From: Firmicutes bacterium CAG:110
GTDB lineage: Bacteria; Bacillota; Clostridia; Oscillospirales; Oscillospiraceae
Length of the DNA stretch: 45,600 nucleotides
Direction: 5' to 3'
NCBI GenBank assembly: GCA_000434635.1
Contig: HF988135.1
Span: forward strand, 26,448-72,047
The first letter of the stretch is position 1; each line of letters begins with the position of its first letter. Shown piece by piece: positions 274 to 32,886 of the stretch. A program made the translations under genes and the position numbers. Below the pieces are notes generated by a model. That model was not told the DNA's origin and searched no databases. It saw only the letters and a program-made list of their open reading frames with translations.

Positions 274-295
274 AGGCTTCTCCCCTTTGTATCGT

Positions 296-3079: not shown

Positions 3080-4175
3080 CTTTTCTCACGACCTCCGCTA
3101 ATTTATCAAACCATGGGCGCAGGGGCGCATTGTCATACCGGCAGTTTTCCATCGCCAGCAGCTCCGGCAAATACCGCTCCACTTCCTCAGGGGTTTTTGC
3201 GTAGCGGACGTAGGGCAGGTAGGAAATCCATTCATAGGTTCCCCGAACCTTATGGTTGCTGCTGCTCATGGCAATGCAGGGCGTACCGGCGAGAGCACAG
3301 AACACCATGCCGTGAAGCCGGTCTGTAATTACCAGCCGCGCCGAGGCAAGCTCCTCCATTTTCTCCCGAACTTGCATTTCCCGGCTCTGCTTTGTGACCT
3401 TCTGGCCGGAATACATATCCGTATAGCCGAACGCAATGCCCTTCGATCGCAGCATTTCTTCCAGATTCTCCCGTTCCTCCACAGGAAGGGAACGCTCCTT
3501 GTCACTGCGCAGACACAGAAGAACGCCCTCCCGCCGCTTTTGTTTCGCGCCGAAGGTGTCCATGGACGCCGAAAGCACGATGTCCGGGGTCAGGAGCACC
3601 CGCGTGTTGGGGTACAGCGACGTCATGATGTCGTAGGACTGCTTTTCCCGCGCCACCATGGTCAGCTTTTTCCGTCCGTCGTAGACCTCCGTGGAGGCTT
3701 TTCCCTCCGCATCTCCGTCTTCCCCCGGCAAATAGCAGATCGTCTGTGGGAAGATGACATTCCGGTTTTTTGCAAAGGCGGAGACCTGACGGCGGTGGAG
3801 ATTTTCCTCATTCCGCCACTGATTTCCCAGATGCCCGCCGCCGAGCTGGGCAATGAAGCCGTTCTTCGGCACCCATTTCCGAATTCGCTCCCAGTCCCGG
3901 GCATAGTCCTCGTCGGTCAGCTCCACGATCCGATCTTCCTCCCAGCCGCAGGACTTGAGGAACGCCTTCTGCGCCAGAACGATCGCGCTGTCCCCCAGAT
4001 TGTCATGGGACGGCGTTCCGATCAGGTAGACCTTTTGCCCCAGAGGGAATACGATCTCCCGCCACTTTCTCAGGCGGCGCTTCCGTTCCAAGTGGTGCTC
4101 CCACTGCCTGTGATACCACCAGTAGACCGGGCGCAGGAATCGTTTCAGGGAATCCGCAATGCGCATTGTTGTCAT
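3066..4175 (-). CDS. Polysaccharide pyruvyltransferase family protein
   Basis: PSHDNLGDSAI, GGGHLG, FPQT, ARE, PDIV and ITDRLHGMVFC motifs. Start revised to 4175 (ATGA overlap with the upstream stop); 4166 is an alternative. Confidence 0.88.
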   Translation of the reverse strand: MTTMRIADSLKRFLRPVYWWYHRQWEHHLERKRRLRKWREIVFPLGQKVYLIGTPSHDNLGDSAIVLAQKAFLKSCGWEEDRIVELTDEDYARDWERIRKWVPKNGFIAQLGGGHLGNQWRNEENLHRRQVSAFAKNRNVIFPQTICYLPGEDGDAEGKASTEVYDGRKKLTMVAREKQSYDIMTSLYPNTRVLLTPDIVLSASMDTFGAKQKRREGVLLCLRSDKERSLPVEERENLEEMLRSKGIAFGYTDMYSGQKVTKQSREMQVREKMEELASARLVITDRLHGMVFCALAGTPCIAMSSSNHKVRGTYEWISYLPYVRYAKTPEEVERYLPELLAMENCRYDNAPLRPWFDKLAEVVRKDAHN

Positions 4176-5305
4176 CTCTCCCGTCTGTCCAGACGCAGAA
4201 TTTTGAAAACCGTCCGCTTCCCCCAGCGCAGGAAGCTGTGGAGCCATGAATCAGGATACCACTTTTTCAGTTCCTTCACCGTGAGCCGGGAGCGGTAATA
4301 GCGGAGCTTGCCGGCAAAAACGCTGTTGCTGTCCGCCAGCTTCCCGCTGAGGAATGCTTCCATCTCCGGCGTGTACCATTTGGCCTCCGGCCGGTTTCTC
4401 AGCTGGGCGTATGTAGGCGTTTTCAGGCTGGGGATCACCCCCAGACTCATGAAGTGGCTGGAATTGATGCAGTAGGGACTGCCGCAATGCTTTCCCACCG
4501 CTTCAAAGGGAATAGGCGCGTCCACATCCTCGAAAATGTTCACACCGTCGTAATCGGCATAGCATTTGGTCAGCACGCCGGTCTGTAAATTCAGCGTTCC
4601 CGACCAGTCCCCGGCGAAGCAGAATTCCTTCCGCTTCACGCAGAAATTTTTTGTGGTGAAATCAAACAGCGGCGAGTGGAATTTTTCGCCGTTGGCAAGG
4701 TATTCCTCCCGCGTTCCCTTCGTGAAAATCCCGAAGGGCTTGCGCTGCTCATCTCTCGTCAGCGCTACCTGAGGGTACGCCCCCACCTTTTCCATGGACA
4801 GCCGCTGAATTTCCTCGATGTAAGGAACATACTCGTCGCACAGGTTCAGCTGTAACAGAATGGACGCCCCGGCGTCGCGCATTTTCCGGATGTTGTCGAA
4901 AAACGTCTCCACCCAGCCTTTGCGCAGCAGCTCCGTATAGTGCATGGAGAAGGAAAGGTGCAGATGGCCGATGTTCTCCCCGCAGGCCTCGATCAGTTCG
5001 TCAAAGCGGCGGCTCAGCGTCCCGTTGGTGGTGATATTGACAAAATGCCCCTCTTTCAGCAGCTCCCCCACGATGGGGACAACCTCTTTCTGCGCCAGCG
5101 TCTCTCCCGCGCCGCAGATGCTGATGAAGCACGTTCCCCCCACCCGTTCCGGGCGCAGGGCACGGGCGATGTGCTCCGGGGAATAGGGCATGTCCGCCAG
5201 CGCCATCTTCCGTCTGTCTTCCTGAATGATATAGCAGTAGGGGCATTCCAGATTGCACACCGACACCGGCACCAAACACTCAAAGAACCGCTTGATCTTA
5301 GCCAT
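4172..5305 (-). CDS. Radical SAM protein with C-terminal cysteines (possible twitch/SPASM-like auxiliary cluster)
   Basis: CNLECPYC (CxxxCxxC), GAGET and TNGT motifs, then CFAG...KC...CGSPYC. Start revised to ATG 5305 after a GGAGG RBS. Confidence 0.88.
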   Translation of the reverse strand: MAKIKRFFECLVPVSVCNLECPYCYIIQEDRRKMALADMPYSPEHIARALRPERVGGTCFISICGAGETLAQKEVVPIVGELLKEGHFVNITTNGTLSRRFDELIEACGENIGHLHLSFSMHYTELLRKGWVETFFDNIRKMRDAGASILLQLNLCDEYVPYIEEIQRLSMEKVGAYPQVALTRDEQRKPFGIFTKGTREEYLANGEKFHSPLFDFTTKNFCVKRKEFCFAGDWSGTLNLQTGVLTKCYADYDGVNIFEDVDAPIPFEAVGKHCGSPYCINSSHFMSLGVIPSLKTPTYAQLRNRPEAKWYTPEMEAFLSGKLADSNSVFAGKLRYYRSRLTVKELKKWYPDSWLHSFLRWGKRTVFKILRLDRRER

Positions 5306-6569
5306 TCTTCCCCTCCAGAACCCGGACGTCGTCAAAGTGGATGCTTCCCCAGCCGTTGGTGTTCCACTTCATATTGTACAGCGGCTCGTCCTCCTCCACG
5401 GTAAAGGCGAAGGCGCGCACCACGATATCGTGGCGGGTCTGGGTCGTACCGTCGTAGGAAATGGTAATGAGGTCGGCGACATACTCCCCGGGAGCCAGAT
5501 TTTTCCCGTCAAATTCCAGCTGTACCGTGCTTTCTCCCGGCCGGAGGGTAAAGGTCTGGGAATAGGCCGTTCCGACGGCGGCGCCCCCGGCGCTGCACAA
5601 CACAAAGCGGAGCATCACGTCGGGGATCTCGCGCCTGCTGTCATAATCCAGCGAAAAACGCAGCTTCTTCTCCCGCGCCATACTGCCGCAGTCCAGATGC
5701 ACCGCGTTGAGATGGCACGCCTCCGTAATGCCTTCCATACGCTTGATTTTGGACACGTCGTAATCGCTTTGCAGCGCCAGCATATTGCCTTTGGCATATA
5801 CCCCGATGGCGTCCTCCACGTCTCCGTCAAAGATAATTTTTCCCTTGTCCATCACGATGCACCGGTCGCACAGCTGCCGGATGGTGCCCATATTGTGGCT
5901 GACGTAAAGGACAGTCCGTCCCTCGACCTGGGCGACCTCCCGCATTTTTTTCAGACACTTCTGCTGGAAATTCACGTCGCCCACCGCCAGGACCTCGTCC
6001 ATGATCATGATCTCGCTGTCCAGATGCGCAGCAACGGAGAAGGCCAGCTTGACGAACATACCGGAGGAATACCGCTTCACCGGGGTGTCGATAAAGTCCC
6101 GCACCTCGGAAAATTCGATGATGTCCTCCATTTTGGCGTCGATCTCTGCTTTGGTCATGCCGAGAATCGCACCGTTCATGTAGATATTCTCCCGGCCGGT
6201 CATTTCTCCGTTGAACCCGGTGCCCACCTCCAGCATGGAGGCAATACGGCCGTAGATGTCAATCTCACCCTCGGTGGGGGCAGTGACGCGGCACAGCAGC
6301 TTCAGAAGCGTGCTTTTTCCCGCGCCGTTGCAGCCGATGATCCCCAGCGCCTCGCCCTTGTGTACCGTCAGGTCAACGCCGTTCAGCGCCATAAATGTCT
6401 GCCCCACAAGGCGCTGATCCATATTCACGGGCAGATTGGGGTCTTCCTTTCCCCGCACACGCGCCCACCAGCTCTGCAAATCCGCGGTCAGCGTGCCGCC
6501 GCCGATCTGCCCCAGCTTGTAGCGCTTTTTCACGCCGGTCAGGCGGATGGCAATATCCTGTTCGTTCAT
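5298..6569 (-). CDS. wzt: Polysaccharide ABC exporter ATPase with a C-terminal Wzt_C-like extension
   Basis: Walker A GCNGAGKST, signature YSSGM, Walker B IMIMDE and VSH, plus a roughly 160 aa C-terminal extension. Confidence 0.92.
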   Translation of the reverse strand: MNEQDIAIRLTGVKKRYKLGQIGGGTLTADLQSWWARVRGKEDPNLPVNMDQRLVGQTFMALNGVDLTVHKGEALGIIGCNGAGKSTLLKLLCRVTAPTEGEIDIYGRIASMLEVGTGFNGEMTGRENIYMNGAILGMTKAEIDAKMEDIIEFSEVRDFIDTPVKRYSSGMFVKLAFSVAAHLDSEIMIMDEVLAVGDVNFQQKCLKKMREVAQVEGRTVLYVSHNMGTIRQLCDRCIVMDKGKIIFDGDVEDAIGVYAKGNMLALQSDYDVSKIKRMEGITEACHLNAVHLDCGSMAREKKLRFSLDYDSRREIPDVMLRFVLCSAGGAAVGTAYSQTFTLRPGESTVQLEFDGKNLAPGEYVADLITISYDGTTQTRHDIVVRAFAFTVEEDEPLYNMKWNTNGWGSIHFDDVRVLEGKNG

Positions 6570-6581
6570 GTTCCGCCCTCC

Positions 6582-7433
6582 TTACACCGTATCCATAAAG
6601 GTGCGTTCCACCTTGTTGAAGACCACAATGCCCAACACAGCGATCACCAGCGTCACGCCCCATGACAGGAAATAGTAGCCCCAGTTCACCGTTCCCTGCC
6701 CCAGAATCGCATAGCGCATCAGCTCCACGGACTCGGTGACGGGGTTGATCTGAAGCAGCGTGCGCATCCAGCCCTCGCCCAGCATGGACAGGGGATAGAC
6801 CACCGGCGTGGCGTACATCCACAGCGACACACCGAAATCCACCAACACCGTGAGATCCCGGTATTTCGTGGTCATGCTGGAAATGATGATGCCGAAGCCC
6901 ATGCCCAGAATGCCCAGATGCACCAGCTCCACGGGAATCATCAGCCACCACAGCCAGTTGGGATGCACCACGCCCTGAATGAGATAGTACACCATAAACA
7001 CCAGCACCAGCGCCATCTGAATGCCAAAGCGGATGACCGTGGAGATGACATTGGAGATGGGTGTGGTCAGCCGTGGGAAATAGACCTTGCCAAACATATA
7101 GGCGTTGGCCGTAAAGGTGTTGGCGTTGCTGGTCAGGCAGTTGGCAAAATACGCCCAGACGGCATTGCTGCACAGGTAAAACAGGAACGTGGGAATCCCG
7201 TCGGTGCCGATACCGGCAATACCGCCGAAGACGAACGCCTGCACGATACTGGTAAACAGGGGCGTCAGGAATATCCACGCGGGACCAAGGATGGTCTGCT
7301 TGTAGCTCACCACAAAATTCCGTTTGGTGAACAGGTAGATTAAGTCCCGGTACTGCCAGACCTCTTTCAGGTTCAGATCCATCCAGCGGTGCTTTGCCGA
7401 GATATGGGTGTGATACATGGAATTCTCTGCCAT
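6582..7433 (-). CDS. wzm: Polysaccharide ABC exporter permease
   Basis: YKQTILGPAW, KVYFPR, YRDL, YATPVVYP and NP motifs; multiple hydrophobic helices; adjacent to wzt. Confidence 0.93.
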   Translation of the reverse strand: MAENSMYHTHISAKHRWMDLNLKEVWQYRDLIYLFTKRNFVVSYKQTILGPAWIFLTPLFTSIVQAFVFGGIAGIGTDGIPTFLFYLCSNAVWAYFANCLTSNANTFTANAYMFGKVYFPRLTTPISNVISTVIRFGIQMALVLVFMVYYLIQGVVHPNWLWWLMIPVELVHLGILGMGFGIIISSMTTKYRDLTVLVDFGVSLWMYATPVVYPLSMLGEGWMRTLLQINPVTESVELMRYAILGQGTVNWGYYFLSWGVTLVIAVLGIVVFNKVERTFMDTV

Positions 7434-7437
7434 AGGA

Positions 7438-8328
7438 TTACCTCTTTTTTCGGATAAATTGCAGCAGGTTATGGAATGTCTTCATAGGCGCAACCAGCCA
7501 GCGGGGCATATCGATATATTCCGCAATCTGGGCGTCGGTACAGCGATCCATAGCGTCGCAGGTGAAGCCGTACCACATGCCCAGCTTGGTTTTCAGGGGA
7601 TAGTGGAAGAATACCGCCTTCTCCCGGAAGAACAGCGCCGTTCCCCGGGGGTTGTCCAGAAAGACCTTGTACCCCGCCTTGGTCAGGCCGTCGTCCTTGT
7701 ACTCCCAGATCCAGATAATGTCGTCGTAGTAGCGAATGCGGTAGCCGTCGTAGGCCATCCGGTTCCAGGTCACCGCTTCGGTCATGAATTTCTCTCCGGG
7801 AAATTCCGGATACAGGTAGTTTCTGTGGATTTCCGTATAGAAAATCAGTGCCCGCTCTCCGTCGATTCTGCCGTACATATCAAAGGCGTTGCCGTCCAGA
7901 TACGCTTCCCCAAATCGGGTGTTGGGCGTTTCGGTAGGGCTTTGTCCTCCGTTTGCCACGATGCCGCAGAATTTCTGATCTTTCGGAAGCGTCGACTCCC
8001 AGAGTGCCACCTTTTCCAGTGCGTCATCCGTCAGGTAGTCGTCGGAATCCACTGTGAAAAACAGTTCTCCCTGCGCCAGCTTCAGACCGTAGTTGATGGC
8101 GCGGCACTTGCCGCCGTTCTCCTTATAGCAGTAGCGGATAGGAAAGGGATTGTCTTCCTTCTGCCACCGTTCAAACAGCGCCTTTGTCCCGTCGGAGGAG
8201 CCGTCGTCCACCACCAGCCATTCAAAGTCCGTGAAGCTCTGACGCTGTAGGGAGCGGTAGAGATTTCCCAATATGTACGCCCGGTTGTAGGTTGGGGTGA
8301 AAACCGTTATTTTATAAGAAAACGCCAT
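7438..8328 (-). CDS. Family 2 glycosyltransferase
   Basis: TVFTPTYNRA, VDDGSSD, NGGK and VDSDD motifs. Confidence 0.92.
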   Translation of the reverse strand: MAFSYKITVFTPTYNRAYILGNLYRSLQRQSFTDFEWLVVDDGSSDGTKALFERWQKEDNPFPIRYCYKENGGKCRAINYGLKLAQGELFFTVDSDDYLTDDALEKVALWESTLPKDQKFCGIVANGGQSPTETPNTRFGEAYLDGNAFDMYGRIDGERALIFYTEIHRNYLYPEFPGEKFMTEAVTWNRMAYDGYRIRYYDDIIWIWEYKDDGLTKAGYKVFLDNPRGTALFFREKAVFFHYPLKTKLGMWYGFTCDAMDRCTDAQIAEYIDMPRWLVAPMKTFHNLLQFIRKKR

Positions 8329-8329
8329 T

Positions 8330-9316
8330 TCATTCGCTTCCTTTCCCGTTTCTGCGCTCCAAGCAATTCATCAGGTGACAGCTGCCTTCAAAGGACAGCT
8401 GTCCCAGAACCAGCCACACATTCCCGGCAGGCGACAGCTTTCTGCTGGGCAAAAGCGGCGTCAGCCCGGAAACCGTCTTCCGCAGACTTTCCTTTGCCTG
8501 ACGCAGCTCCTCTCCGGACAGGTACTGAATACTCATTTGCATTGCATACTGGCAATATAGGAACAGATTTGCCCTGCCCTCATATTCCAGCGACGGCATA
8601 TGCGTTTTCAGATACGCCAGCCGCTGCTCCTGTGCCTGAACGCCCTCCAGTCTGCGCAGCGAAAAGCCGCCATGCATAACGCTGTCCGGCTGCTGACGGT
8701 AGGCATAGAGCTTTCTGGTGGAGCGAACCAGCCGCTTCGCGTTTCCCAGCACCCGATAGGTGAAAAATTCATCATCGATTTTCGTCCCGACCGGGAACCG
8801 GATATCCCCGACGGTTTCCCGGCGGTACAGCTTGTTCCAGATCAGCTGGCGAAACGCCGTATCCCGAATGTGGCAGCGCATGGCTTCCAGGGGTGTATAG
8901 AAGGAAATCTCTCCGGCATCCGTGCCGAAAACAGCGTCGTTACGCTCCGTCTCCACGAAATCACATTCAGCGATATCCGCCCCTTCTTCCAGAAGCGTGT
9001 GCAGATATTGGTAACAGCCAGGGGCGATATAGTCGTCGCTGTCCACGAACGCAATTCGTTCTCCCCGCGCCGCATCCAGTCCGGCATTCCTGGCCGCGCC
9101 GCCTCCCGCGTTTTTTTGATGAATCACTCGAATCCGGCTGTCTTTTTCTGCCCAGGCATCGCACATGGCGCCGCTGGCGTCCGGGGAGCCGTCGTCGATC
9201 AGGATAATTTCCAGGTTGGAATAGGTCTGATTCACGATGGATTGGACACAGCAGTCCAGATAGTTTTCCACTTTATAGACAGGGACAATCACGCTGATCA
9301 ATGGCAGCTGCGTCAT
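8330..9316 (-). CDS. Family 2 glycosyltransferase
   Basis: ISVIVPVY, IDDGSPD, FVDSDD and WNKLY motifs. Start revised to ATG 9316 (MTQLPL), with a GAGG RBS. Confidence 0.92.
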   Translation of the reverse strand: MTQLPLISVIVPVYKVENYLDCCVQSIVNQTYSNLEIILIDDGSPDASGAMCDAWAEKDSRIRVIHQKNAGGGAARNAGLDAARGERIAFVDSDDYIAPGCYQYLHTLLEEGADIAECDFVETERNDAVFGTDAGEISFYTPLEAMRCHIRDTAFRQLIWNKLYRRETVGDIRFPVGTKIDDEFFTYRVLGNAKRLVRSTRKLYAYRQQPDSVMHGGFSLRRLEGVQAQEQRLAYLKTHMPSLEYEGRANLFLYCQYAMQMSIQYLSGEELRQAKESLRKTVSGLTPLLPSRKLSPAGNVWLVLGQLSFEGSCHLMNCLERRNGKGSE

Positions 9317-9327
9317 AGTGTATCCTC

Positions 9328-10314
9328 TCAGTGTTCCTCTTCCCGCCGGAAGAGCTTCTCGTACAGTCTGTAAGTCAACCCAAACAGACCCGGCATCCTG
9401 CAAACCATTTTTGCCAGCAGCCGGTTTCGCTTTGACAGCAAATGGAAATACCCTTCCTGTTCTTCCATCTCGGTGCGAACCCGCCGGCGCCATTCGTCAT
9501 ACCGTTTCTCCGGATGCACGGAGAGCTGGGCGTAGGCAAACAGGAGATTCCGCATCAGCGCCCGGCGGGCGTCCTCCCGGATTTCACTGCCGCTGTCCTC
9601 CACAATCAGCTCCCGAACCCGGATGGGGTCGAACAGGCTGTGCTCGTTCAGCTGCCGGAAGGAGGCGGAATTTTCCCGCAAAATATAGCGGTAGGGGCAA
9701 AAATCCTCATATACCGACCGTTTCGCCCGGGAAAACAGGAAGTAATTCATGAGATAATCTTCGTTGTTCTTGATGGCGGGGTTCATCCGTTCCGCCAGTC
9801 CGGCGAACAGCTCCCGGCGGTACAGCTTGGTACACAGGCTGGACTCGACCTGCCCGCCGTCCAGCAAATCCCGCAGACCGGTCAGATTGTCCTGCTGCCG
9901 CAGCCGGCCGGTATTGTGGACATAGGCCACCCGGCCGTCGGGAAACTCCACCCGGTGTCCGCAGTGGGAAATGTCCGCGCCGTAGGCATGGGCGTTTTCC
10001 AGAAGATGGCGGTACATATCCGGGTCTATGGCATCGTCGCCGTCGGCGAAGCCGACCCATTCTCCCGTGGCCGCCGCTACGCCCGCAAGGCGGGCAGAGG
10101 TCACGCCGCCGTTTTCCTTGAAAATCGGTCTGATACGCCCGTCCCGGGCGGCATAGTCCTCCATCACCTGCCGGGTGTTGTCGGCGGAACCGTCGTCCAC
10201 CACAATGATTTCCAGCTTTGAATAGGTCTGCGCAAGGACGCTGTCCAGACACCGCGGAAGCCATGGAGCGACATTATACGCCGGTATGATGACCGAGATG
10301 GTTTCGCCCTCCAT
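9328..10314 (-). CDS. Family 2 glycosyltransferase
   Basis: ISVIIPAYN, VDDGSAD, NGGVTSAR, DGDD and NED motifs; GGAGG RBS. Confidence 0.92.
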   Translation of the reverse strand: MEGETISVIIPAYNVAPWLPRCLDSVLAQTYSKLEIIVVDDGSADNTRQVMEDYAARDGRIRPIFKENGGVTSARLAGVAAATGEWVGFADGDDAIDPDMYRHLLENAHAYGADISHCGHRVEFPDGRVAYVHNTGRLRQQDNLTGLRDLLDGGQVESSLCTKLYRRELFAGLAERMNPAIKNNEDYLMNYFLFSRAKRSVYEDFCPYRYILRENSASFRQLNEHSLFDPIRVRELIVEDSGSEIREDARRALMRNLLFAYAQLSVHPEKRYDEWRRRVRTEMEEQEGYFHLLSKRNRLLAKMVCRMPGLFGLTYRLYEKLFRREEEH

Positions 10315-10326
10315 TTTGCTTCCTCC

Positions 10327-11406
10327 TTATTTTTTCGCCGCTAAGCGCTCATATTCTTCACAATATCGTTTCGCCATGGTCTCCGCGGAAAAACGGACGC
10401 TGTCCGCCAGCGCGTTCTGCCCAAGGGTTCTGCGCAAGTCCTCGCTGTCGATCAGCCTTTCGCAGGCCGCACACACCTCGCCGGGGTCGCAGCCGACCAG
10501 CAGTCCGCTCTCCCCATCCCGAAGCATATCCGGCACGCCGCCGACTCTGGACGCCACAATGGGCAGTCCCGTTCCCATGGCCTCGATGATGGTCATGGGC
10601 ATTCCCTCATATTTGGACGGCAGCAGGAACATATCCGCGTCGTGGAGATAGGGATGGACGTCCGCCTGATTTCCCAGAAAATGGGCGGCATGGCCGATGC
10701 CCAGTTCCCGTGCGTAATTTTCCATGTCCGTCCGCAAATGCCCGTCCCCCAAAAGGTTCAGGCAGCAGTTGGGGTGGGTTTTCAGGAGCTTTGCAAAGGC
10801 TTGCAGCAATCCTGCGTGGTTTTTCTGCTCGTCAAACCGGCCAATGTGCAGCAGGGAAACGGTATCCCCCAACCCATAGTCCGTTTTAGGAACGCACCGG
10901 CGGAGATTCACGCCGTTGAAAATCACGGGAACGCGGTCAAGGCCATAGAATTCCGTCACCGTCCGCTGAACCTCCGGGCTGAGCGCCACCGGCACAGACC
11001 AGCCCCGGTGATAGTAAAACCGGTTGAAAATGGCCTGGGCAGTCCCCTCTGCCTCCACCTTCGCCACGTTGTGAACCGTGTGGACGCAGGGAATGCCCCC
11101 CGCCAATCTAGCCGCCATCACCGCGTACAGAATCACGTTCAGGTGGGTGTGGACTACGTCCGGCCGTTCCTCCCGGAAAATCTTCATGAGCTTCGGCACC
11201 ACGGACATATCCAGCCCCGGCTTTTTGCTTAAGTACCGGATGCGGACGCCTGCTGCCTCCATGCGGTCGGAAATCTTTGTCCGCTCATCAAACAGACTCA
11301 CCACGACCACGTCGTGGCCCAGCTCCCGCAGGGCGTAAGTCAGATTTTCGCACATGGTTTCCGCCCCGCCGAAGCAGAAATAGGGGATGACCTGCAATAT
11401 TTTCAT
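10327..11406 (-). CDS. Family 4 (GT-B) glycosyltransferase
   Basis: GGAE, HTVH, GRFDEQKN and EGMPMTIIEAM motifs. Start revised to 11406 (ATGA overlap). Confidence 0.92.
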   Translation of the reverse strand: MKILQVIPYFCFGGAETMCENLTYALRELGHDVVVVSLFDERTKISDRMEAAGVRIRYLSKKPGLDMSVVPKLMKIFREERPDVVHTHLNVILYAVMAARLAGGIPCVHTVHNVAKVEAEGTAQAIFNRFYYHRGWSVPVALSPEVQRTVTEFYGLDRVPVIFNGVNLRRCVPKTDYGLGDTVSLLHIGRFDEQKNHAGLLQAFAKLLKTHPNCCLNLLGDGHLRTDMENYARELGIGHAAHFLGNQADVHPYLHDADMFLLPSKYEGMPMTIIEAMGTGLPIVASRVGGVPDMLRDGESGLLVGCDPGEVCAACERLIDSEDLRRTLGQNALADSVRFSAETMAKRYCEEYERLAAKK

Positions 11407-12452
11407 AGCGTTCCTCCCCATTGGCGGTAACAGGCGAGAATGGTGTCGTTATATTTCTGTTCGTCGTTGATTTTGGCGAATTTCTTCGCCGCGTTTTCGG
11501 ACAGAAGCCGTCTATGGTCAGGATTTTCCACGATTTTCAGAATATCCTCCGCCAGCACGACGTCTTCGTCACTTAAGTATCCGTCCACGCCGTTTTCGAT
11601 CAGGTCTTTCATCCCGTCGGACGGGGTGCTGACCACCGGCGTTCCCAGCGCCATGGCTTCCAGGGCGCACATGGGCGTTCCCTCCCAGCGGGAGGTCAGG
11701 ATTATCGCCTTGCTGTCCGCCACCATTTTGATGGGGTTGCTCTGGAAGCCCAAAAAATGCACATTGTCCTGCAAGTCCAGTTCCCTGCACAGCGCTTTTG
11801 TCTCTTCCTCCAGTTCTCCCGCACCGACCACCGCCACTTTGATGTCCGGCTTGCGTTCCTTCAGAGCGGCGCTCAGACGCATCAGGCGCTGGGGATCCTT
11901 CTGATAAGTCAGACGGCCGAGGTAGATCATGTCAAAATCGTAGGTATTTCCATCACTGTCCCGCATGGCAAAAATCCGCTTGGCGTCGATGATGTTGTAC
12001 AGCACGCTGCTCTTTTTGGCGAACAGCCTGTGGAACACATACCCCTCGTAGGAGCTGTTGGAGACCCAGAAAATATGCTTTGCCCGGAAGCCCGCCAGCA
12101 GATAGGCGATGGACTTCGCGGACAGTCCTCTGGCGTCGTAGGCGTTGTTATGGATGTGGGAAATCAGGGGGATTTTGCCGCAGCACAGCGCCGCGACGAA
12201 GCTGGTGCGCATGTCGTGGGCGTGAATCACGTCCGGCTGATACTCCCGAATCACCCGGCTGAGGGTCGCAGGGGTCAGCTCCTCCACGCCATAGTGCCGG
12301 ATGCCCATGCCGTCCAGAATTTCCCAGACTTCCTCGCATTCCAGACTGCAATAGGCCATGTCCACCCTGCCCTCAAAGGCTTTGATGATCTGGGCGGCAA
12401 CCTTTTCCGCGCCGGTGTAAATTTTGGAATACAGAACGTGCAGTACCTTCAT
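11403..12452 (-). CDS. Family 4 (GT-B) glycosyltransferase
   Basis: GAE, GRLTYQKD and EGTPMCALEAM motifs. Confidence 0.92.
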   Translation of the reverse strand: MKVLHVLYSKIYTGAEKVAAQIIKAFEGRVDMAYCSLECEEVWEILDGMGIRHYGVEELTPATLSRVIREYQPDVIHAHDMRTSFVAALCCGKIPLISHIHNNAYDARGLSAKSIAYLLAGFRAKHIFWVSNSSYEGYVFHRLFAKKSSVLYNIIDAKRIFAMRDSDGNTYDFDMIYLGRLTYQKDPQRLMRLSAALKERKPDIKVAVVGAGELEEETKALCRELDLQDNVHFLGFQSNPIKMVADSKAIILTSRWEGTPMCALEAMALGTPVVSTPSDGMKDLIENGVDGYLSDEDVVLAEDILKIVENPDHRRLLSENAAKKFAKINDEQKYNDTILACYRQWGGTL

Positions 12453-12471
12453 GTCTCCGCCCTCTTTTCTT

Positions 12472-13425
12472 TTATTTTCCCGCTGCTTCCCGCATATTCA
12501 GGCTTTCCATGCCGTATTTTTCTTTCAGTTCGGCGTAATAGCGGAAGATTTCTTCCAGCTGCGCCATGTGTTCCGCCGTGCGGACGCCGATGTTGTGGGG
12601 GTGCCACCACAGATGGAAGGTCAGGCCGTTTTTCGCCGCGTGGAGCATCTGGCGTTTGATTCTGTGGACCTTTAAGCCCTCCATGAAATGAAGCGGCCCC
12701 AAAATCGGCCGGAACATCTGGGTTCCCCGCAGGTTCCAGATGCCGTCTTCCTGCTTTGGCGTGTAGCTGCCGTACCCGGTGATGGGGAAATAGGTGTCCG
12801 TCAGCCGCAGTACCCGCAGGGGAAAATGGACGTGGACTTTATTTTCCACCCAGTTGTCTTCCATTCCCCGGTAGGCGGTGAAGCCCAAGTCCCGCAGCAC
12901 CCGGATGTATGCCGGGTCGCACTGATTCCGGGGCAGCACCGCAGAGGTCAGGGTGTAGCCGTATTTCGCGGCAATGGCCTTCGCCGCGGTCATATCCGCC
13001 GCGAACTGCTCCGCTGTCTGCCCCTTTTCCTTGCAGTAGTAATGGGAAAAAGTGTGGCTGCCGATCTCCTGCCCCGGCGTTCCCGCGACCAGCTCAATCA
13101 GTGACGGGGCAAAAAAGCAGGGCGCGTCCGCTTCCGCTTCTCCGATTTTGGAGAACTCGGCATAGGAATTCAGCGCCGGGTCATCATAAGCAGGCCGCAG
13201 ACCTTCCTCCGGGAAAAACGAGGCCGCTTCCTGTGCGCTCCTGGCGAACAGATATCCCACCGTCGCCCACGTGGCATGGATGCCGTATTTCTGAAACAGC
13301 GCCAGCAGCCCGGGAATCGCCTTTCTGCCGCCCAGAACGTGATCCTGATACTTCTCCAGCGGACACACGTCCAGCATTCCCCAAAACAGCTCAAAATCCA
13401 GCGATATGATCAGCGTTCCGGCCAT
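12472..13425 (-). CDS. Polysaccharide deacetylase (NodB/CE4-like)
   Basis: ISLDFE, ATWATVG, EIGSHTFSH and FHLWWHPHN motifs. Confidence 0.88.
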   Translation of the reverse strand: MAGTLIISLDFELFWGMLDVCPLEKYQDHVLGGRKAIPGLLALFQKYGIHATWATVGYLFARSAQEAASFFPEEGLRPAYDDPALNSYAEFSKIGEAEADAPCFFAPSLIELVAGTPGQEIGSHTFSHYYCKEKGQTAEQFAADMTAAKAIAAKYGYTLTSAVLPRNQCDPAYIRVLRDLGFTAYRGMEDNWVENKVHVHFPLRVLRLTDTYFPITGYGSYTPKQEDGIWNLRGTQMFRPILGPLHFMEGLKVHRIKRQMLHAAKNGLTFHLWWHPHNIGVRTAEHMAQLEEIFRYYAELKEKYGMESLNMREAAGK

Positions 13426-13443
13426 GCCGCCGCCCCCCTTCGT

Positions 13444-14574
13444 TCATACACTTAAGTAAATTTCCTTCATCTTTTGCTGTACCGCTTTCGCGTCGAACCG
13501 GGAAACCGTCTGCGACGCAGCGCGTCCCAGCTGTTCCCGCAGCGCCGGGTCATGGTACAGCTTCAGGATGGCCGCCGCCACGCCCTCGGGCGTGTTCTCC
13601 GCAAACAGGCCGTCAACGCCGTGCTCGATCAAATCCGTGTTGCCCCGGATCTTCGAGCAGACCGCAGGCAGGCCGCAGCTCATGGCCTCCATCAGCGCCA
13701 CCGGCATTCCTTCCCGGAAGGACATAAACGCGAATATGTCGCTGCACCGGCACAGTTCCGGCACATCATGGCGATAGCCAAGGAAGTGGACATGCTCCCA
13801 GATGCCCAGCTGCCGCGCTTCGGCTTCCAGCGCGTCCCTCTGCTCTCCCCGGCCGCAGATGAGATAGTGCATGCTTTCATAGCCCGGCTCGTTTTTCAGC
13901 AGCGCCAGCGCCTTGAGCACCGTAGAATGGTTCTTGTTTTTCGTCATTTCCGCCACGGTGAGGATCAGGAAATCCTGCCCGGTCAGTCCCAGCTCCCGGC
14001 GCTTTTCCGCCCGGTCTACGGTGCCGACGTGGAATTTCGCCGTATCCACCCCCACGCCGGGGACGTATTCAATACGCTTCGCGCGGATTTTTCTCTTTGC
14101 CAGCGCGTAGTCCTCTTTGTTGATGGTCACGAGAACATCCGTCAGCGGTGCAAGCAGCCATTCCGCCGGGTAGAACATCAGCCAGTTTTTCACGGGCGCA
14201 CCCTTGAAAAAGTGGAAGCCGTGGGCGGTGTAAATCACCTTGGTTCCCCGCTTCCGGGCGTCCCGCGCCGCCAGGCGGGCGATCATGGCGCCCACGGGGG
14301 TATGGCAGTGAATGATGTCGAAATGCTCCCGGTCGATAATGGCTTTCAGCTCCCGGTAGGCTTTGATGTTGGCCGCCTTCCACGGGAGACGTTCAAAGGG
14401 AATGTCATAGTAAGTATCGCAGAATGGAATCTGGCAGTCGGCGGGGTCTTCATAGTCGTTCCGCGCCGCCACTGCTGTCTCCCAGCCCATGTCCTGAAAC
14501 ATTTTCAGATAGGGGATATGGAATTCCATTATGTGGGTTTTGACCACCGTTGCCACGAACAGCACCTTTTTCAT
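13444..14574 (-). CDS. Family 4 glycosyltransferase (EpsD-like), first gene of the downstream unit
   Basis: HCHTP, YTAHGFHF and REGMPVALMEAM motifs. Start revised to ATG 14574, which lies downstream of the predicted promoter. Confidence 0.92.
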   Translation of the reverse strand: MKKVLFVATVVKTHIMEFHIPYLKMFQDMGWETAVAARNDYEDPADCQIPFCDTYYDIPFERLPWKAANIKAYRELKAIIDREHFDIIHCHTPVGAMIARLAARDARKRGTKVIYTAHGFHFFKGAPVKNWLMFYPAEWLLAPLTDVLVTINKEDYALAKRKIRAKRIEYVPGVGVDTAKFHVGTVDRAEKRRELGLTGQDFLILTVAEMTKNKNHSTVLKALALLKNEPGYESMHYLICGRGEQRDALEAEARQLGIWEHVHFLGYRHDVPELCRCSDIFAFMSFREGMPVALMEAMSCGLPAVCSKIRGNTDLIEHGVDGLFAENTPEGVAAAILKLYHDPALREQLGRAASQTVSRFDAKAVQQKMKEIYLSV

Positions 14575-14598
14575 TCCATTCCCTCTTTTCGGATACAA

Positions 14599-14605
14599 TG
14601 TCGAA
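14599..14605 (+). promoter_or_regulatory. Putative Spo0A box (TGTCGAA) over the predicted transcription start
   Basis: Exact match to the TGNCGAA consensus, 3 bp downstream of the -10 hexamer. The same heptamer occurs in the 32276-32304 promoter. Confidence 0.5.
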
Positions 14606-14608
14606 TGT

Positions 14609-14637
14609 ATTATACACCATTCCACGTCCTATTTCAA
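14609..14637 (-). promoter_or_regulatory. Sigma-A-type promoter for the downstream (Wzm/Wzt) unit
   Basis: Minus strand reads TTGAAA-17 bp-TATAAT, 34 bp upstream of ATG 14574. Confidence 0.8.
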
Positions 14638-14648
14638 CCACAAGCGCG

Positions 14649-14674
14649 AAAAAAGGCCGGGCAGCCAGCCCGGG
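14649..14674 (-). terminator. Putative intrinsic terminator ending the Wzx/Wzy unit
   Basis: Minus strand reads CCGGGC-TGGCT-GCCCGG, then CC and TTTTTT. Confidence 0.6.
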
Positions 14675-14704
14675 ACGGCGGAGATCAGCATCCCGCAGAA
14701 CTCA

Positions 14705-14871
14705 TACTGAACTCCAATTAAAATCTTTAGAAAAGATTTTAATTGCCCGAAGGGCAAGGAGTTCATACGAGACTTGTTTTGTGATTTCTTTCCTTATAAA
14801 TCACAAAACTGGCAGCGCCATCAGGCGATGCCTTCCTGATTGAAATCAAAGATTTTAATCAGGAAATAGTA
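14705..14871 (-). mobile_element. 167-bp structured MITE-like element, copy 1
   Basis: TAC...GTA ends flanked by TCA direct repeats (14702-14704 and 14872-14874). Both ends read TACT-N8-ATTAAAATCTTT inward. Contains five hairpins. Confidence 0.78.
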
Positions 14872-16263
14872 TCAGATCAATACTTTCCGCTTTCTGATTC
14901 GCAAAAGCTCCCATAGGCCAATGGCCGCGCCCAGTCCCCAGCGCGCCAGCCACAGTCCATCCGCCGCCACGGACGCCACGGCCACAGCGGCGAACACCGC
15001 CGCGTACCCGACCCACATTTTCAGCGGGAAGGGGTATTCTTTCCCGCCCAGAGCGAAACGGACGTACAGATAGTGCAGCGTCAGCTGCAAACTGTGGGAA
15101 ATCAGCGTCGCCACCGCCGCGCCGGCCATGCCGATGCGCAGGATCAGCAGGTAATTCAGCCCCACATTTATCAGCGACGACACAATAGTGATGATCGAGA
15201 CGACCTTGGTCTTTTTGTGGTAATACTCGAAATTCACCGGGAAGGTACACAGGAAATTGGTGTAGTAGCTGGACACAAAAATGGGAATGAGCATGGTGCT
15301 TCCCCAGAAATCCCGGGAAACGTAGACATAGCGGTACACTTCGCTGGCCAGCAGCACGAAGCCCACGGAAAGCACCGTGAAAAGCTCCAGAAAATTCCCC
15401 GCCTTTTCCCGCAGATTCTCCCGGTTGCCCTGCTTCATGTCCTCGAAGAAAAAGGGGCACCATGAATTGTTCAGGGCGGTGAACAGAGTGAACATGATGC
15501 CGCCGAAATTCAGCGCCGCGCCGTAGCAGCCCACCGTGGCCTCGTCCATCATCTGCTGGAGCATCACCTTGTCGCTCTGCCCCAGAATCAGGTCTGAAAG
15601 GTTGTAAAATACCGTCGGAATGGCAAGAACAATGCAGAATTTCCAATATTCCTTGTTGTAAAAGGTCTTCCCCTTCGCCAGAATCCAGATGCACACCGGA
15701 ATGCCCAGCACGCCGTAGGTCACGGCGATAGCGGAAATGCGGCCTAAGTAGTTGATCTGCTTGGGCAGCAGCAGAATCAGCACAATGGAGAGGATCAGGG
15801 TGGTCAGCGTCACCACAAGGGACATGGCCATGTTCCGCCCTGCCTTGAATTCGTAGACGAATTTGGTGTTCAGGAAGTTGACGCAGAAGGTGCCGAAGCC
15901 CTGAATGAGCATCAGCACGATCAAAAACCAGCTCAGCTTCAGCGCCCCGGAAATGGGGCCGATAAAGCACAGCACCAGTGCGCTGAAAATCAGATACACC
16001 AGCGTGGACAGGCTCATGGCCGAGGACTGGTAGCGCAGCTGGTCTCCCTCCGGGTACTCCACCCGGGCGTTGACCAGCGTCCCCTGGGTTTGCAGCGTGA
16101 ACACAATGGCGATCACCGCCACCCATGTGTTGTAAATTTGGGTAACGCCGTAACCGCTGGTTCCCAGCAGACGGGTAAACAGGGGCGCTGTGAATATGGA
16201 AATGCCTCTGAGCAAAACGGTGCTCAGAATGTTAAAAAAAGCAACCCGGTTTCGTCGATTCAT
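14872..16263 (-). CDS. wzx: Oligosaccharide flippase (Wzx/MOP family)
   Basis: About 12 hydrophobic segments; PLFTRLL..YG, SDKVML, VGCYGAA and LNYLLI..GMAGAAVAT patterns. Confidence 0.9.
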   Translation of the reverse strand: MNRRNRVAFFNILSTVLLRGISIFTAPLFTRLLGTSGYGVTQIYNTWVAVIAIVFTLQTQGTLVNARVEYPEGDQLRYQSSAMSLSTLVYLIFSALVLCFIGPISGALKLSWFLIVLMLIQGFGTFCVNFLNTKFVYEFKAGRNMAMSLVVTLTTLILSIVLILLLPKQINYLGRISAIAVTYGVLGIPVCIWILAKGKTFYNKEYWKFCIVLAIPTVFYNLSDLILGQSDKVMLQQMMDEATVGCYGAALNFGGIMFTLFTALNNSWCPFFFEDMKQGNRENLREKAGNFLELFTVLSVGFVLLASEVYRYVYVSRDFWGSTMLIPIFVSSYYTNFLCTFPVNFEYYHKKTKVVSIITIVSSLINVGLNYLLILRIGMAGAAVATLISHSLQLTLHYLYVRFALGGKEYPFPLKMWVGYAAVFAAVAVASVAADGLWLARWGLGAAIGLWELLRIRKRKVLI

Positions 16264-16266
16264 AGT

Positions 16267-17280
16267 TCACTCCGCGCTTTTTGCATCCGTTTTCCCGGGA
16301 CGCACCCCGTGGTAAAGCCCCCGCATGGGGCGGTACAATCCGGCGGCCAGCAGCAAATCCGTCACCCGCTCCTGCCTGCCAAACAGCGGGCTGGTCAGCA
16401 AAAAGGAAATATGCCTGCAAAGCGCCTTCCGGGACAGGCGGTATTCATCTGCAAATTTCTGCCGGGTATCCTTGTCCGCCAAATCCAGCGTCAGCAGATT
16501 GTAGGCGAGGGAACGCACCCGCAGATACCGCGCCGCATCCGCGATTCCCGGATAATTGTCCCGGATAAACGGGTAGACTTCTGCCGTATGTCTGGAAAAG
16601 TGGAAGGTTTTCTCCGAAACCGAGGACGAGGTGATGCTCCCCGGCCGGTGGTAATAATTGTAAACGGGGCAGGGCAGCATAGCCGCCTGTCCGGCATCCA
16701 GCGCAATGCGGTAGGTGGTAGGAACGTCCTCGCAGATCACCCCAAGGGGATAGCGGGCAGACGCAAAAAGGCTTCTATGATACAGCTTGTCCCATGCGGC
16801 GGAGTCGATGTTCTCCCAATGGAAAATCCGGCGCACTAGTTCTTCCCCGGAAATGACCTCCTCTTTTGGCGGGCACAGCCCCAGCGTCTTCTCCCCGGTC
16901 TCGCTGCCGACGTCCCAGCGCCCCGCGCAGACCAGACGGACGCCGTATTTTTCCATCAGCGCCATCATTTTCTCGTACATATCCGGCTCGATCCAGTCGT
17001 CGCTGTCCACGAAGGAAAGGTACTCCCCTGTCGCCGCGTCTATTCCGGCGTTCCGGGCGCTGCTCAGGCCGCCGTTTTTCTTGTGAATTGCTTTGACTCT
17101 GGCGTCCTGCCGGGCGTAGGCGTCGCAGATGGCGCCGCTGTTGTCCTTCGTGCCGTCGTCCACCAGAAGAATCTCCAGATTCTCATAGGTCTGCGCCAGA
17201 ATGGATTCCACGCACCGGGGAAGGTACTGCTCCACATTGTACACCGGAACAATGACGCTGATCCGCGGGTTCTGATTCAT
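16267..17280 (-). CDS. Family 2 glycosyltransferase
   Basis: ISVIVPVYNVEQYL, NGGLSSARN, FVDSDD and WDKLY motifs. Confidence 0.93.
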   Translation of the reverse strand: MNQNPRISVIVPVYNVEQYLPRCVESILAQTYENLEILLVDDGTKDNSGAICDAYARQDARVKAIHKKNGGLSSARNAGIDAATGEYLSFVDSDDWIEPDMYEKMMALMEKYGVRLVCAGRWDVGSETGEKTLGLCPPKEEVISGEELVRRIFHWENIDSAAWDKLYHRSLFASARYPLGVICEDVPTTYRIALDAGQAAMLPCPVYNYYHRPGSITSSSVSEKTFHFSRHTAEVYPFIRDNYPGIADAARYLRVRSLAYNLLTLDLADKDTRQKFADEYRLSRKALCRHISFLLTSPLFGRQERVTDLLLAAGLYRPMRGLYHGVRPGKTDAKSAE

Positions 17281-17298
17281 GCCGCATTCCTTCCTTTC

Positions 17299-18558
17299 TC
17301 ACCCTTCGGCGCTGTTTTTGGCAAGTCTTTCGTAAATTTCCAGCAAATCCGCCAGATTCTTTTCCGGGTCGTGGGTCACACCGGCGTGGGCGCGCGCCGC
17401 CGCGCCCATGGCTTCGGCCGCCTCGCCCTGTGCAAAAATGTTTTCCACATAAAACGCCAGCATATAGGGCGCGGTGGAGGGGTAGACCTCTCCTTCCAAC
17501 CTGTGGCGCATCATGGTCGTGACGCCGCCCACGTCCGCCGCCACACAGGGCACGCCCAGCAGCATGGCCTCCCCCAGAGAATTGGGGGAATTCTCAATGG
17601 TGGATGGCAGCACGAACACGTTCGCGTCAAGGAACGCCTGCTTCATTTCCTCCCCGCTGAGACTGCCCAGAAATTCGATCTTATCCTCCACGCCGTACTG
17701 CTCCGCCAGATCTGCCAGATATTTCTGGTAGTTGGTTCTGCGGAGCTTGCTCGCCGTCAGGAAGCTCTTTCCCGGCACCGCCAGCGTGGCATCCGGGTAG
17801 GTCTTGACGATCTGGCCAAAGGCTTCCAGCAGATAGTGAAAGCCCTTCACGGGATAGGCGCAGCTGGAAGCGAAAATCCGGTGTTTCCGGCAGCTGTCAT
17901 AGCGCCAAGTCCCCTGATAAAAGGGCTGGCGCAATGTCTCGTTGCAGAAATGGTACTTTGCTTCCGGATTGATCCGTCGGACGCAGGCCAAGTCCCAGTC
18001 CGTTCTGCCGATAATATGGCGCGCCTTTTGCAGGGCTTTTTCTTCCAGAAGCCCCCGAAGCACGAACTTTTCCCGCTGCTTCACGATATTGTCCCGCCGG
18101 ACAACATCACGGAAGGTGCTGCCCCGCTGAACCGACTCCGGAACGCCCTCGGCATAATGCCCGGCATAAACCGAACAAAGTCCCTGAATGCTGACCACCA
18201 GACTGTCCAGCCGCCCCGCCTTTTCCGCAGCGTTAACCATGGCAAGGGTGTGGCCGTACTCCGTCCCCCAGACGTGGATCACGTCCGGCTGGAAGGTATC
18301 CAGCTCCCCCCGGAACTGCGTTTCCAGCTCCGTCAGGTACACATAGGGCAGCCCCTCGGAAAAGAAAGCGTAGGAGCATCGTTCACTCACGCGCCCCTCG
18401 CCGCCGTCGCCGGGGCAGAGAATGCGGATATTCAGGTCTTCCCGTCCCAGCAGCCCTTCCAGCACGCTGTCAACCCACAGTCCGCCGCCGGTGGAACCGC
18501 CGCTTACGGCTTCTTTCACCTTTCCGGGCACCATATTGCACAGCCACAGCAGCTTCAT
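17299..18558 (-). CDS. Family 4 glycosyltransferase
   Basis: GGGLW, HVWGTE, KG and ENSPNSLGEAM motifs. Confidence 0.9.
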   Translation of the reverse strand: MKLLWLCNMVPGKVKEAVSGGSTGGGLWVDSVLEGLLGREDLNIRILCPGDGGEGRVSERCSYAFFSEGLPYVYLTELETQFRGELDTFQPDVIHVWGTEYGHTLAMVNAAEKAGRLDSLVVSIQGLCSVYAGHYAEGVPESVQRGSTFRDVVRRDNIVKQREKFVLRGLLEEKALQKARHIIGRTDWDLACVRRINPEAKYHFCNETLRQPFYQGTWRYDSCRKHRIFASSCAYPVKGFHYLLEAFGQIVKTYPDATLAVPGKSFLTASKLRRTNYQKYLADLAEQYGVEDKIEFLGSLSGEEMKQAFLDANVFVLPSTIENSPNSLGEAMLLGVPCVAADVGGVTTMMRHRLEGEVYPSTAPYMLAFYVENIFAQGEAAEAMGAAARAHAGVTHDPEKNLADLLEIYERLAKNSAEG

Positions 18559-32304: not shown

Positions 32305-32430
32305 GGGAAAGTTTTGCCGTTACAACATCTCCAGAGGACCATTTTTGCATGCATAGAAAAATGGCGCAACCATAATAGGCAGGGCGCATCAAACAATTAT
32401 CAGGCGCAGTGGGATCATGAACTGCATCTC

Positions 32431-32713
32431 TTGCCTCTCCCTTTGGGAGAGGTGGCTGATACTAGTTTTCAATAAAACGGTTAAAAACCGTTTTATTCGG
32501 CTGCTGTTTCAGCAGCCAGCGGCGTAGCCGCAAAAAACGTAAGTCCATACATTTCTCGCCGCCGCCGGCGGCCTGCGAAGGATTCGCAGGATAAAATGGT
32601 GTTAACCATTTTATCGAGAAATCGTATGAGCGAAGCGAAGACGGAGAGGGTAAGCAAGTCTGCAAGGCCCTCTCAGTCACCTGCGGTGACAGCTCTCCCA
32701 GAGGGAGAGCCAA
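32431..32713. repeat. Inverted pair of REP-like palindromic repeats; the left copy is interrupted by the 167-bp element
   Basis: Left copy with the insert removed reads TTGCCTCTCCCTTTGGGAGAGGTGGCTGAGCGAAGCGAAGACGGAGAGGG. The reverse complement of 32668-32713 reads TTGGCTCTCCCTCTGGGAGAGCTGTCACCGCAGGTGACTGAGAGGG. Confidence 0.8.
32460..32626 (+). mobile_element. 167-bp structured MITE-like element, copy 2
   Basis: TAC...GTA ends flanked by TGA direct repeats (32457-32459 and 32627-32629). About 40 bp imperfect terminal inverted repeats and six hairpins. Removing it plus one TGA restores the REP-like repeat. Confidence 0.82.
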
Positions 32714-32781: not shown

Positions 32782-32886
32782 CGCTATTTTACGATTACCC
32801 ATCAAACCGGCAAGGGAGGTTTCTTAGGGTCTATCTGAAAACCGTCAACACGCCCAAACAGTGAAAGACCGCGTCGTTTCGACATT

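Follow-up and report, generated by a model that had tools for sequence, protein, structure and literature searches.

The window analysed here, a stretch of 45,600 nucleotides from Firmicutes bacterium CAG:110, is part of contig C168 in a 2.5-Mb draft genome of 182 contigs. It carries two small non-coding elements, each 167 bp long and each with TGA on both sides, and they raise the question of whether a mobile element can choose its insertion site by base pairing. An earlier reading of the sequence without database searches (the sequence-only reading) had noted that an internal segment of each element pairs across its own 3' end into the duplicated target, and had tentatively suggested target selection by pairing, in the manner of IS200/IS605 guide sequences or of the EBS-IBS pairing of group II introns. 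In the present study, this proposal survived in part. The covariation that we found in one family of the elements (family A) speaks for it; the varied flanks of the B-type families, and a target that is an IS630-type TNA duplication, speak against it. The coordinates of the elements and of their parts are shown in Table 1.

Table 1. Positions in the window of the two elements and of their parts, with the basis of each assignment
Feature	Coordinates	Strand	Description and basis
Element 2	32460..32626	+	167-bp family-A (subfamily A1) MITE, TACTAG...CGTA
Element 2, left TGA duplication copy	32457..32459	+	empty-allele contigs
Element 2, right TGA duplication copy	32627..32629	+	empty-allele contigs
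Element 2, left TIR	32460..32482	+	19 of 23 bases equal the reverse complement of the right end (by eye)
Element 2, 5' domain	32471..32531	+	three hairpins (32471-32497, 32499-32517, 32519-32531); RNA and DNA folds
Element 2, AAGTC linker	32541..32545	+	joins both folded domains; common to families A and B
Element 2, closing stem, 5' arm	32546..32558	+	internal inverted copy of the right terminus; fold, alignment, RNAalifold
Element 2, hairpins inside the closing stem	32559..32614	+	three hairpins (32559-32571, 32573-32589, 32591-32614); folds, alignment
Element 2, closing stem, 3' arm	32615..32628	+	last 12 element bases (C 32623 bulged) and flank T, G
Element 1	14705..14871	-	167-bp family-B MITE; minus strand reads TACTATTTCC...TTCAGTA
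Element 1, left TGA duplication	14872..14874	-	doubles as stop codon of frame 14872..16263 (463 codons)
Element 1, right TGA duplication	14702..14704	-	sequence, complete-copy scan
Element 1, closing stem, internal arm	14758..14770	-	TCGTATGAACTCC; centroid fold
Element 1, closing stem, 3' arm	14702..14715	-	GGAGTTCA-G-TA and flank TGA; fold

The pairing itself was confirmed in both elements. In element 2, CATACATTTCTCG, which directly follows AAGTC (32546-32558), is complementary to CGAGAAAT-C-GTATG (32615-32628). The resulting stem has 13 pairs and one bulged C, and its outermost two pairs involve T and G at 32627-32628, which are no longer part of the element and belong to the right copy of TGA; the C at 32546 sits opposite the middle base of the flank. 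In the case of element 1, on the minus strand, the partner of TCGTATGAACTCC (14758-14770 in plus-strand coordinates) is GGAGTTCA-G-TATGA (14702-14715), with one bulged G, one G-T pair, and all three flank bases paired. The stem that this inverted internal copy of the terminus forms takes in the final 11-12 bases of the element and then continues into the flank, by 2 bases in family A and by 3 bases in family B.

In the modelled folds, this segment forms the stem that closes a 3' domain of several hairpins. As RNA, element 2 folded at -87.6 kcal/mol (z = -9.7) and element 1 at -72.6 kcal/mol (z = -8.5), and none of 200 shuffles was as good in either case. As single-stranded DNA, element 2 gave z = -11.7 and -10.8 on its two strands. 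With DNA parameters, its 5' half closed into a three-hairpin domain, and AAGTC joined the two domains. A further long-range helix, which would join the left terminus to AAAAACGTAGT, fitted subfamily A1 by eye and was lost in A2; it was thus dropped. No family of Rfam 15 reached its gathering score anywhere in the window, and searches by E-value gave only chance-level matches.

For the study of conservation, 77 family-A copies were aligned, namely element 2, 75 of the 80 listed locus references, and a rare variant (L334). One locus with an aberrant left flank (L099) and four duplicates of copies from this genome were left out. RNAalifold, given no structure, predicted the same stem from this alignment, both flank pairs included. 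Standard pairs made up 98.6% of the cells of the closing stem, in which three pairs were changed on both sides, and compensatory pairs were also present in helices 1 and 2 of the 5' domain. Over the whole specified structure, 96.7% of 4488 cells were standard pairs versus 90.5% in shuffles, none of 500 of which reached the observed value; when the partners were slid by 1-3 columns, 36-53% were paired.

Six sequence versions of the inner 8-9 stem base pairs occur among the families, and all of them are complementary: ATTTCTCG/CGAGAAAT; ATTTCTTA/TAAGAAAT; ATTTCTCA/CGGGAAAT, with one G-T and one A-C mismatch; TGAACTCC/GGAGTTCA; GGAGCGCT/AGCGCTCC; and GGATTCTCT/AGAGAATCC. Within the stem, the fixed A1/A2 differences compensate each other (CG..CG to TA..TA), and one copy of family B2, from a sister species, has its last element base changed (GTA to GTG) along with the internal partner (TCATA to TCACA). 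As judged from these comparisons of copies, the closing stem is shown to be under selection and to be maintained through compensatory changes.

The genome contains 7 full copies of family A, with 90-100% identity, as well as fragments, which brings the family to about 10 copies in all. Family B is represented by about 50 left ends and 47 right ends, of which 20 copies are complete, and deletion derivatives down to 51 bp exist. Many of the family-B ends are at contig ends, which indicates that the repeats break the assembly. One A1 copy (L335:581-830) carries another small MITE, TACTAAAACCTGATTAAAAAC...GGTTTAGTA, in the loop of its last hairpin, with TTA/TTA flanks; these families therefore insert into each other.

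Flanks were counted in scans that had no flank base fixed in the pattern. The left flanks of family B (n = 50) were TGA in 28 cases, TAA in 14, TCA in 4, TTA in 3, and TAG in 1, and its right flanks (n = 47) were TAA in 16, TGA in 16, TCA in 8, TTA in 3, and others in 4. The same TNA stood on both sides of 27 of the 30 complete copies in the genome (TGA 17, TAA 6, TTA 3, TCA 1). These counts show that the target duplication is real and is a 3-bp TNA. The shared CTGAG target that the sequence-only reading had seen holds for these two copies only; the flank is generally TNA.

Element 2 also has an empty allele with a single TGA. Public contigs of three runs (X1, X2, and X20) join 32456 to 32627 and skip 170 bases, with three letters that fit either side; one of these contigs has 168 bases on its shorter side. 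Flank matching for 18 elements against the collected DNA gave no empty site, and that of element 2 was found in the public contigs. For element 1, the public contigs gave no clean empty site; one of them has 18 other letters in place of 14674-14871.

A partner for the elements is present on contig C98 (1176 bp), which holds a 1116-bp element with the structure TAA-TACTAATTCTTAAT...AAGAAATAGTA-TAA, and thus with the ends TACTAATTCTTAAT / TACTATTTCTTAAT. The first 5-14 bases of the left TIR of element 2 match these ends. This IS is nested in a family-B copy, the uninterrupted form of which reads GGCAAT-TAA-AATC. Its minus strand encodes an HTH part and a DDE part in two frames, which match Pfam DDE_3 (2.9e-16), HTH_33, and HTH_23, and also NCBIfam NF033545 'IS630 family transposase' (128.8 bits, cut-off 100). 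It is the sole DDE_3 match in the genome; PF01609 matched only two transposase fragments on short contigs, unlinked to the elements, and PF13359 had no match in the genome. On C98 (L136), the transposase occupies 43-1032 of the minus strand, split over frames of 148 and 181 codons.

Relatives of this IS were collected from public sequences with a peptide pattern, which matched 442 stretches; 418 of them encode a relative, and the best 80 were kept as loci. Both ends were found in 20 of the best 80 loci. These elements are 1050-1126 bp long (19 of them 1105-1126 bp), with TACTA..TT ends, TNA flanks, and equal triplets on both sides in 12 of the 20. Where insertions were nested, the uninterrupted host element had a single TAA or TTA. 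In the transposase orientation, the 5' flanks of 33 of the best 80 loci were TTA (8), TAA (7), TGA (5), TCA (2), and non-TNA (11), the last of which likely reflect misplaced ends; the 3' flanks of 32 of the best 80 were TAA (13), TTA (11), TGA (4), TCA (3), and AAA (1). One lineage of the IS shows all four N at the flank, and two copies with identical ends on one contig are at TCA/TCA and TGA/TGA. The full-length IS takes every N without orientation bias, and the bias is specific to the MITE.

The shared ends, the TNA target, and the partner IS together show that our elements are non-autonomous MITEs, which fall into two related families and rely on an IS630-family DDE transposase. The clade of this partner duplicates TNA, unlike the usual TA hallmark of IS630/Tc1-mariner: the TA dinucleotide duplication usual for IS630 was not found, the duplication here being 3 bp.

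We then have to ask whether the internal base that faces the flank varies with it. The family-A core was scanned in public sequences with the base after AAGTC left free, and at least 113 stretches were obtained. Of at least 116 core matches, 27 had neither end; these came from truncated copies or arose by chance in unrelated phyla. Public genomes and this genome together contain at least 85 distinct complete family-A copies at no fewer than 83 distinct sites. Among the matches listed, A1 (left end TACTAG, internal C) had TGA/TGA flanks in 41 of 42 copies, and A2 (left end TACGAG, internal A) had TTA/TTA flanks in 34 of 43; the remaining A2 copies were at TGA/TGA with the internal A kept (2) or had unequal or mutated flanks (7). 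A third lineage (L049, with a copy in G020) combines A1-like 5' hairpins with an internal A and TTA flanks. In the 77 aligned copies, the internal base combined with the middle flank base as A:T in 38, C:G in 35, and G:C in 1, and was unpaired in 3, and the adjacent pair, between an internal A and the first T of the flank, was present in all 77.

A scan for the rare variants with G or T at this position gave two matches in the metagenome collection and one in the genome collection, all of which were real family-A elements. The single copy with an internal G, which is A2-like, has TCA/TCA flanks, the predicted complement, and its left end keeps the G at position 4. The two copies with an internal T are A1-like and have TGA on their sole readable side (the right in L333, the left in L335), so that a T-G wobble pair is formed; they are probably C-to-T mutations in place. 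A search of 401 genomes of the genus for further family-A lineages with an internal G or T gave one chance match only, and a search of 151 genomes of the family for a family-A lineage with a different stem sequence gave no match. In family A, the covariation that the sequence-only reading had proposed to look for was thus found over many copies, the internal base tracking the middle base of the flank at independent sites, and we consider the coupling in this family very probably real.

The same check gave the opposite result in the B-type families, in which the internal C is fixed while the flanks vary. Family B keeps the internal TCATA whatever the flank, and B copies that are alike at the 11 tabulated variable columns occur at both TGA and TAA. 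A public scan with AAGTCTNNTATGAACT gave 116 stretches, 6 of which are family-B copies, all with internal CA (TGA 4, TAA 2). By eye, the nine B2 copies with the internal arm and a readable right end had TAA (5), TCA (2), and TGA (2), the complementary TGA being present in two of the nine. Family C, which is 159 bp long with perfect 14-bp TIRs, has no such stem. Its flanks (n = 19; 10 of 29 sites were left out as too diverged to orient) were TAA/TAA in 8 cases, TGA/TGA in 3, TTA/TTA in 2, and mixed in 6, with a purine preferred in one orientation. As family C is biased without the stem, some orientation bias has another cause. Within family A, the A1/A2 split is fully linked to whether T or G stands at position 4 of the left end, and the contrast between these subfamilies is essentially close to a single evolutionary event. 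Pairing-coupled flanks are therefore shown for family A only, and no general rule follows. Family C (e.g., L006:1373-1531) has an internal hairpin, GCCATAC-ATACA-GTATGGC, the stem of which repeats the CATAC/GTATG pairing of the family-A internal arm with the end and flank.

A mechanism by which pairing might produce the coupling in family A can be outlined as follows. The element would act in a folded single-stranded state, DNA or RNA, with two multi-hairpin domains joined by AAGTC. In this state, the right terminus would be double-stranded by virtue of the internal copy, and two overhanging internal bases would be free to pair with the T and the N of the target. The pairing would bias where and in which orientation copies settle, and a one-base internal change (C, A, or G) would re-set the flank (TGA, TTA, or TCA). 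Our main reading, which we regard as evenly balanced, is that the TNA sites and the orientation in which family-A copies establish themselves are constrained by the folded strand. That the pairing is the cause of the coupling falls slightly short of this. We doubt that the pairing, if it matters, acts at integration and not via retention or excision. It also seems unlikely, while worth considering, that an IS630/Tc1-mariner passenger carries a one-base 'address' that pairs with the middle base of TNA, fixes the site and the orientation, and is re-programmed by a single mutation.

Several points weigh against guidance by pairing. The B-type families have the same kind of stem and the internal TCATA, yet their flanks vary; two A2 copies are at TGA/TGA with the internal A unchanged; and the A1/A2 split is about one event, with position 4 linked. 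An RNA or single-stranded DNA intermediate would be a feature of the proposal only. We know of no DDE transposase of the IS630 family that reads its target by nucleic-acid pairing.

The elements might instead be ordinary MITEs, a possibility to which we give a rather low probability. The stem would then serve otherwise, such as in joining the ends of a very short DNA or in RNA stability, and its complementarity to the flank would be coincidental, the family-A flank being set by another determinant, e.g., position 4 of the left end, or by a founder effect. This explanation accommodates B and B2, which keep the stem and not the complementarity, as well as family C, which is biased without the stem, and the full linkage between position 4 and the flank that is seen in A1, in A2, and in the L049 lineage. 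It does not accommodate the sole internal-G copy, which has TCA/TCA flanks though it retains the A2-like G at position 4 of its left end; moreover, pair 99:187 of the alignment behaves like the other covarying stem pairs, and B2 shows by eye no relation between position 4 and the flank. Another explanation is a carried flank: the excised element would keep its TNA as overhangs, as in piggyBac with TTAA, and would join best to a target with the same N. In that case, N and the orientation would be inherited, and the internal base would be selected to match only in active master copies. The uniformity of the young, near-identical family A beside the mixed flanks of the older B and B2 fits such a carried flank, as do the family-B switches, which are mostly G to A, a right flank that is still TTA in four of the six A2 copies with unequal flanks, and a weak haplotype-flank association within the genome. 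The full IS shows no such inheritance, since copies with identical ends differ in their flanks (TCA/TCA versus TGA/TGA) and all four N occur within one lineage, and Tc1/mariner-type enzymes are known to place their cut in the non-transferred strand within the element and not beyond its end, which also counts against a carried flank; we thus consider it improbable.

Selection by the host seems to us more improbable again. Here, elements at gene ends would act as structured RNA or DNA, e.g., in transcript protection or termination, and only copies with a complete stem or on stop codons would persist. Stop codons are indeed common at the insertion sites: among the matches listed, the left TGA of A1 terminates an open frame of 80 or more codons in 13 of 42 copies and the right TTA of A2 (TAA on the other strand) does so in 20 of 43, and the left flank of family B does so in 15 of 50, all of these shares being raw counts. 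Element 1 itself lies between the stop of the 463-codon frame and a terminator-like hairpin (14654-14673). On the other hand, the end that points to the neighbouring gene is opposite in A1 and A2, A1 is never at TAA though TAA and TGA stops are about equally frequent in long frames (1183 versus 1159), and no terminator-like site was found inside element 1 or element 2, which also counts against this explanation. The placement at stop codons fits a tolerance of stop-regenerating insertions, and leaves the base specificity unexplained. As to the neighbouring gene, another frame (14855..16126) overlaps the frame next to element 1 (14872-16263, minus strand).

The resemblance to guide-sequence systems noted by the sequence-only reading can now be put in its place. 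IS200/IS605 elements have no TIRs, make no duplication, and use a Y1 HUH transposase, whereas our elements have all three of TIRs, a duplication, and a DDE partner. Group II introns have a six-domain ribozyme fold, usually with a reverse transcriptase. That our elements are IS200/IS605-like transposons with guide sequences, or group II intron-like elements with EBS-IBS pairing, is highly improbable: the many hairpins and the short internal segment complementary to the end and flank suit such a reading, and the true 3-bp duplication, the TIRs, and the IS630-type partner contradict it. Membership in IS200/IS605 did not hold up in view of the TIRs (19 of 23 bases in family A), the 3-bp duplication, and the missing Y1 match; the genome, a 98.2% complete draft assembly, has no match to the Y1 HUH transposase (PF01797). 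The likeness to group II introns likewise found no support, as no Rfam family, group II introns included, was at threshold in the window. In piggyBac, a short fixed TTAA target is duplicated, and a model lets the flank bases travel with the element; its transposase is of a different family, and its TTAA is palindromic, so that no orientation information is carried.

What the elements do have in common with IS200/IS605 guide sequences (PMC10055086) is a few internal bases complementary to the end and the adjacent DNA, and oriented copies. The bridge or seeker RNA of IS110/IS1111, in the excerpted text of two reports (10.1101/2024.01.24.577089, 10.1101/2024.04.26.591405), is similar in that a nucleic acid encoded by the element pairs with the end and the target core, and in that the inserted element has the core on either side. 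According to the same excerpts (10.1101/2024.01.24.577089, 10.1101/2024.04.26.591405), those systems differ in having a DEDD recombinase, two internal loops, guides of several bases, and no TIRs; in our elements, at most one variable base would be read, and the partner is a DDE transposase. Membership in IS110/IS1111 was considered and rejected, as the elements have TIRs and no DEDD transposase is beside them. The sole PF01548 (DEDD_Tnp_IS110) match in the genome, a weak one (29.7 bits, cut-off 29), is on another contig (C140:32044-32247), at the start of a 1425-codon frame with a RuvC-like N-terminus.

The closest known kind is the IS630-mobilised MITE such as RUP. In the excerpted text of PMC2229807, RUP of Streptococcus pneumoniae is a MITE mobilised by an IS630-family transposase, and duplication of the TA dinucleotide is the familiar, usual hallmark of IS630. 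As described there, IS630-mobilised MITEs such as RUP share with our elements a length below 200 bp, the absence of coding sequence, and a multi-copy state; RUP further shares TIRs similar to those found on an IS630-family IS of the same genomes, the making of a target duplication, and insertion into other mobile elements (PMC2229807). Compared with RUP in that excerpt (PMC2229807), our elements duplicate a 3-bp TNA instead of TA, have two multi-hairpin domains kept by compensation and a third, internal copy of the terminus, and have a flank that is lineage- and orientation-specific and complementary to the internal base. Literature term searches, mostly at the abstract level, revealed no IS630 MITE with a TNA duplication or with a pairing-coupled flank.

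If pairing of the folded strand is the cause of the coupling, the target and orientation of a cut-and-paste DDE transposon would be set by the sequence of its cargo DNA, which would link the protein-guided Tc1/mariner elements with the pairing-guided IS200/IS605 and IS110, and could explain the upkeep of elaborate compensated hairpin architectures in these MITEs. If the one-base address is true, nucleic acids would guide the choice of target in a transposase family that is held to recognise targets by protein only. Even without causality, the findings aid the annotation of gut Oscillospiraceae genomes, the assemblies of which are broken by these repeats: they describe an IS630 clade with a TNA duplication, frequent positions exactly at stop codons, and nesting among families.

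Other repeats are present in and around the window. A second small repeat family, with ends like AGGGYCTATCTGAAAACCG, adjoins element 2 at 32816-32870, and the public contigs deviate from the window at 32861. Repeats of the AGGGYCTATCTGAAAACCG type are also found at C182:92180-92554, have right ends on C115, C132, and C162, and sit inside family-A2 and family-B copies elsewhere in the genome. The DNA flanking element 2 (32380-32457 and 32627-32700) is itself repeated; in the case of C144:11290-11400, the right flank of element 2 and part of its upstream sequence are joined to an internally deleted family-A copy. The first part of the window (1-17300) contains at least 7 diverged direct repeats of 50-270 bases, with 60-90% identity and a spacing of about 1 kb, which resemble a row of paralogous genes and might belong to a polysaccharide locus.
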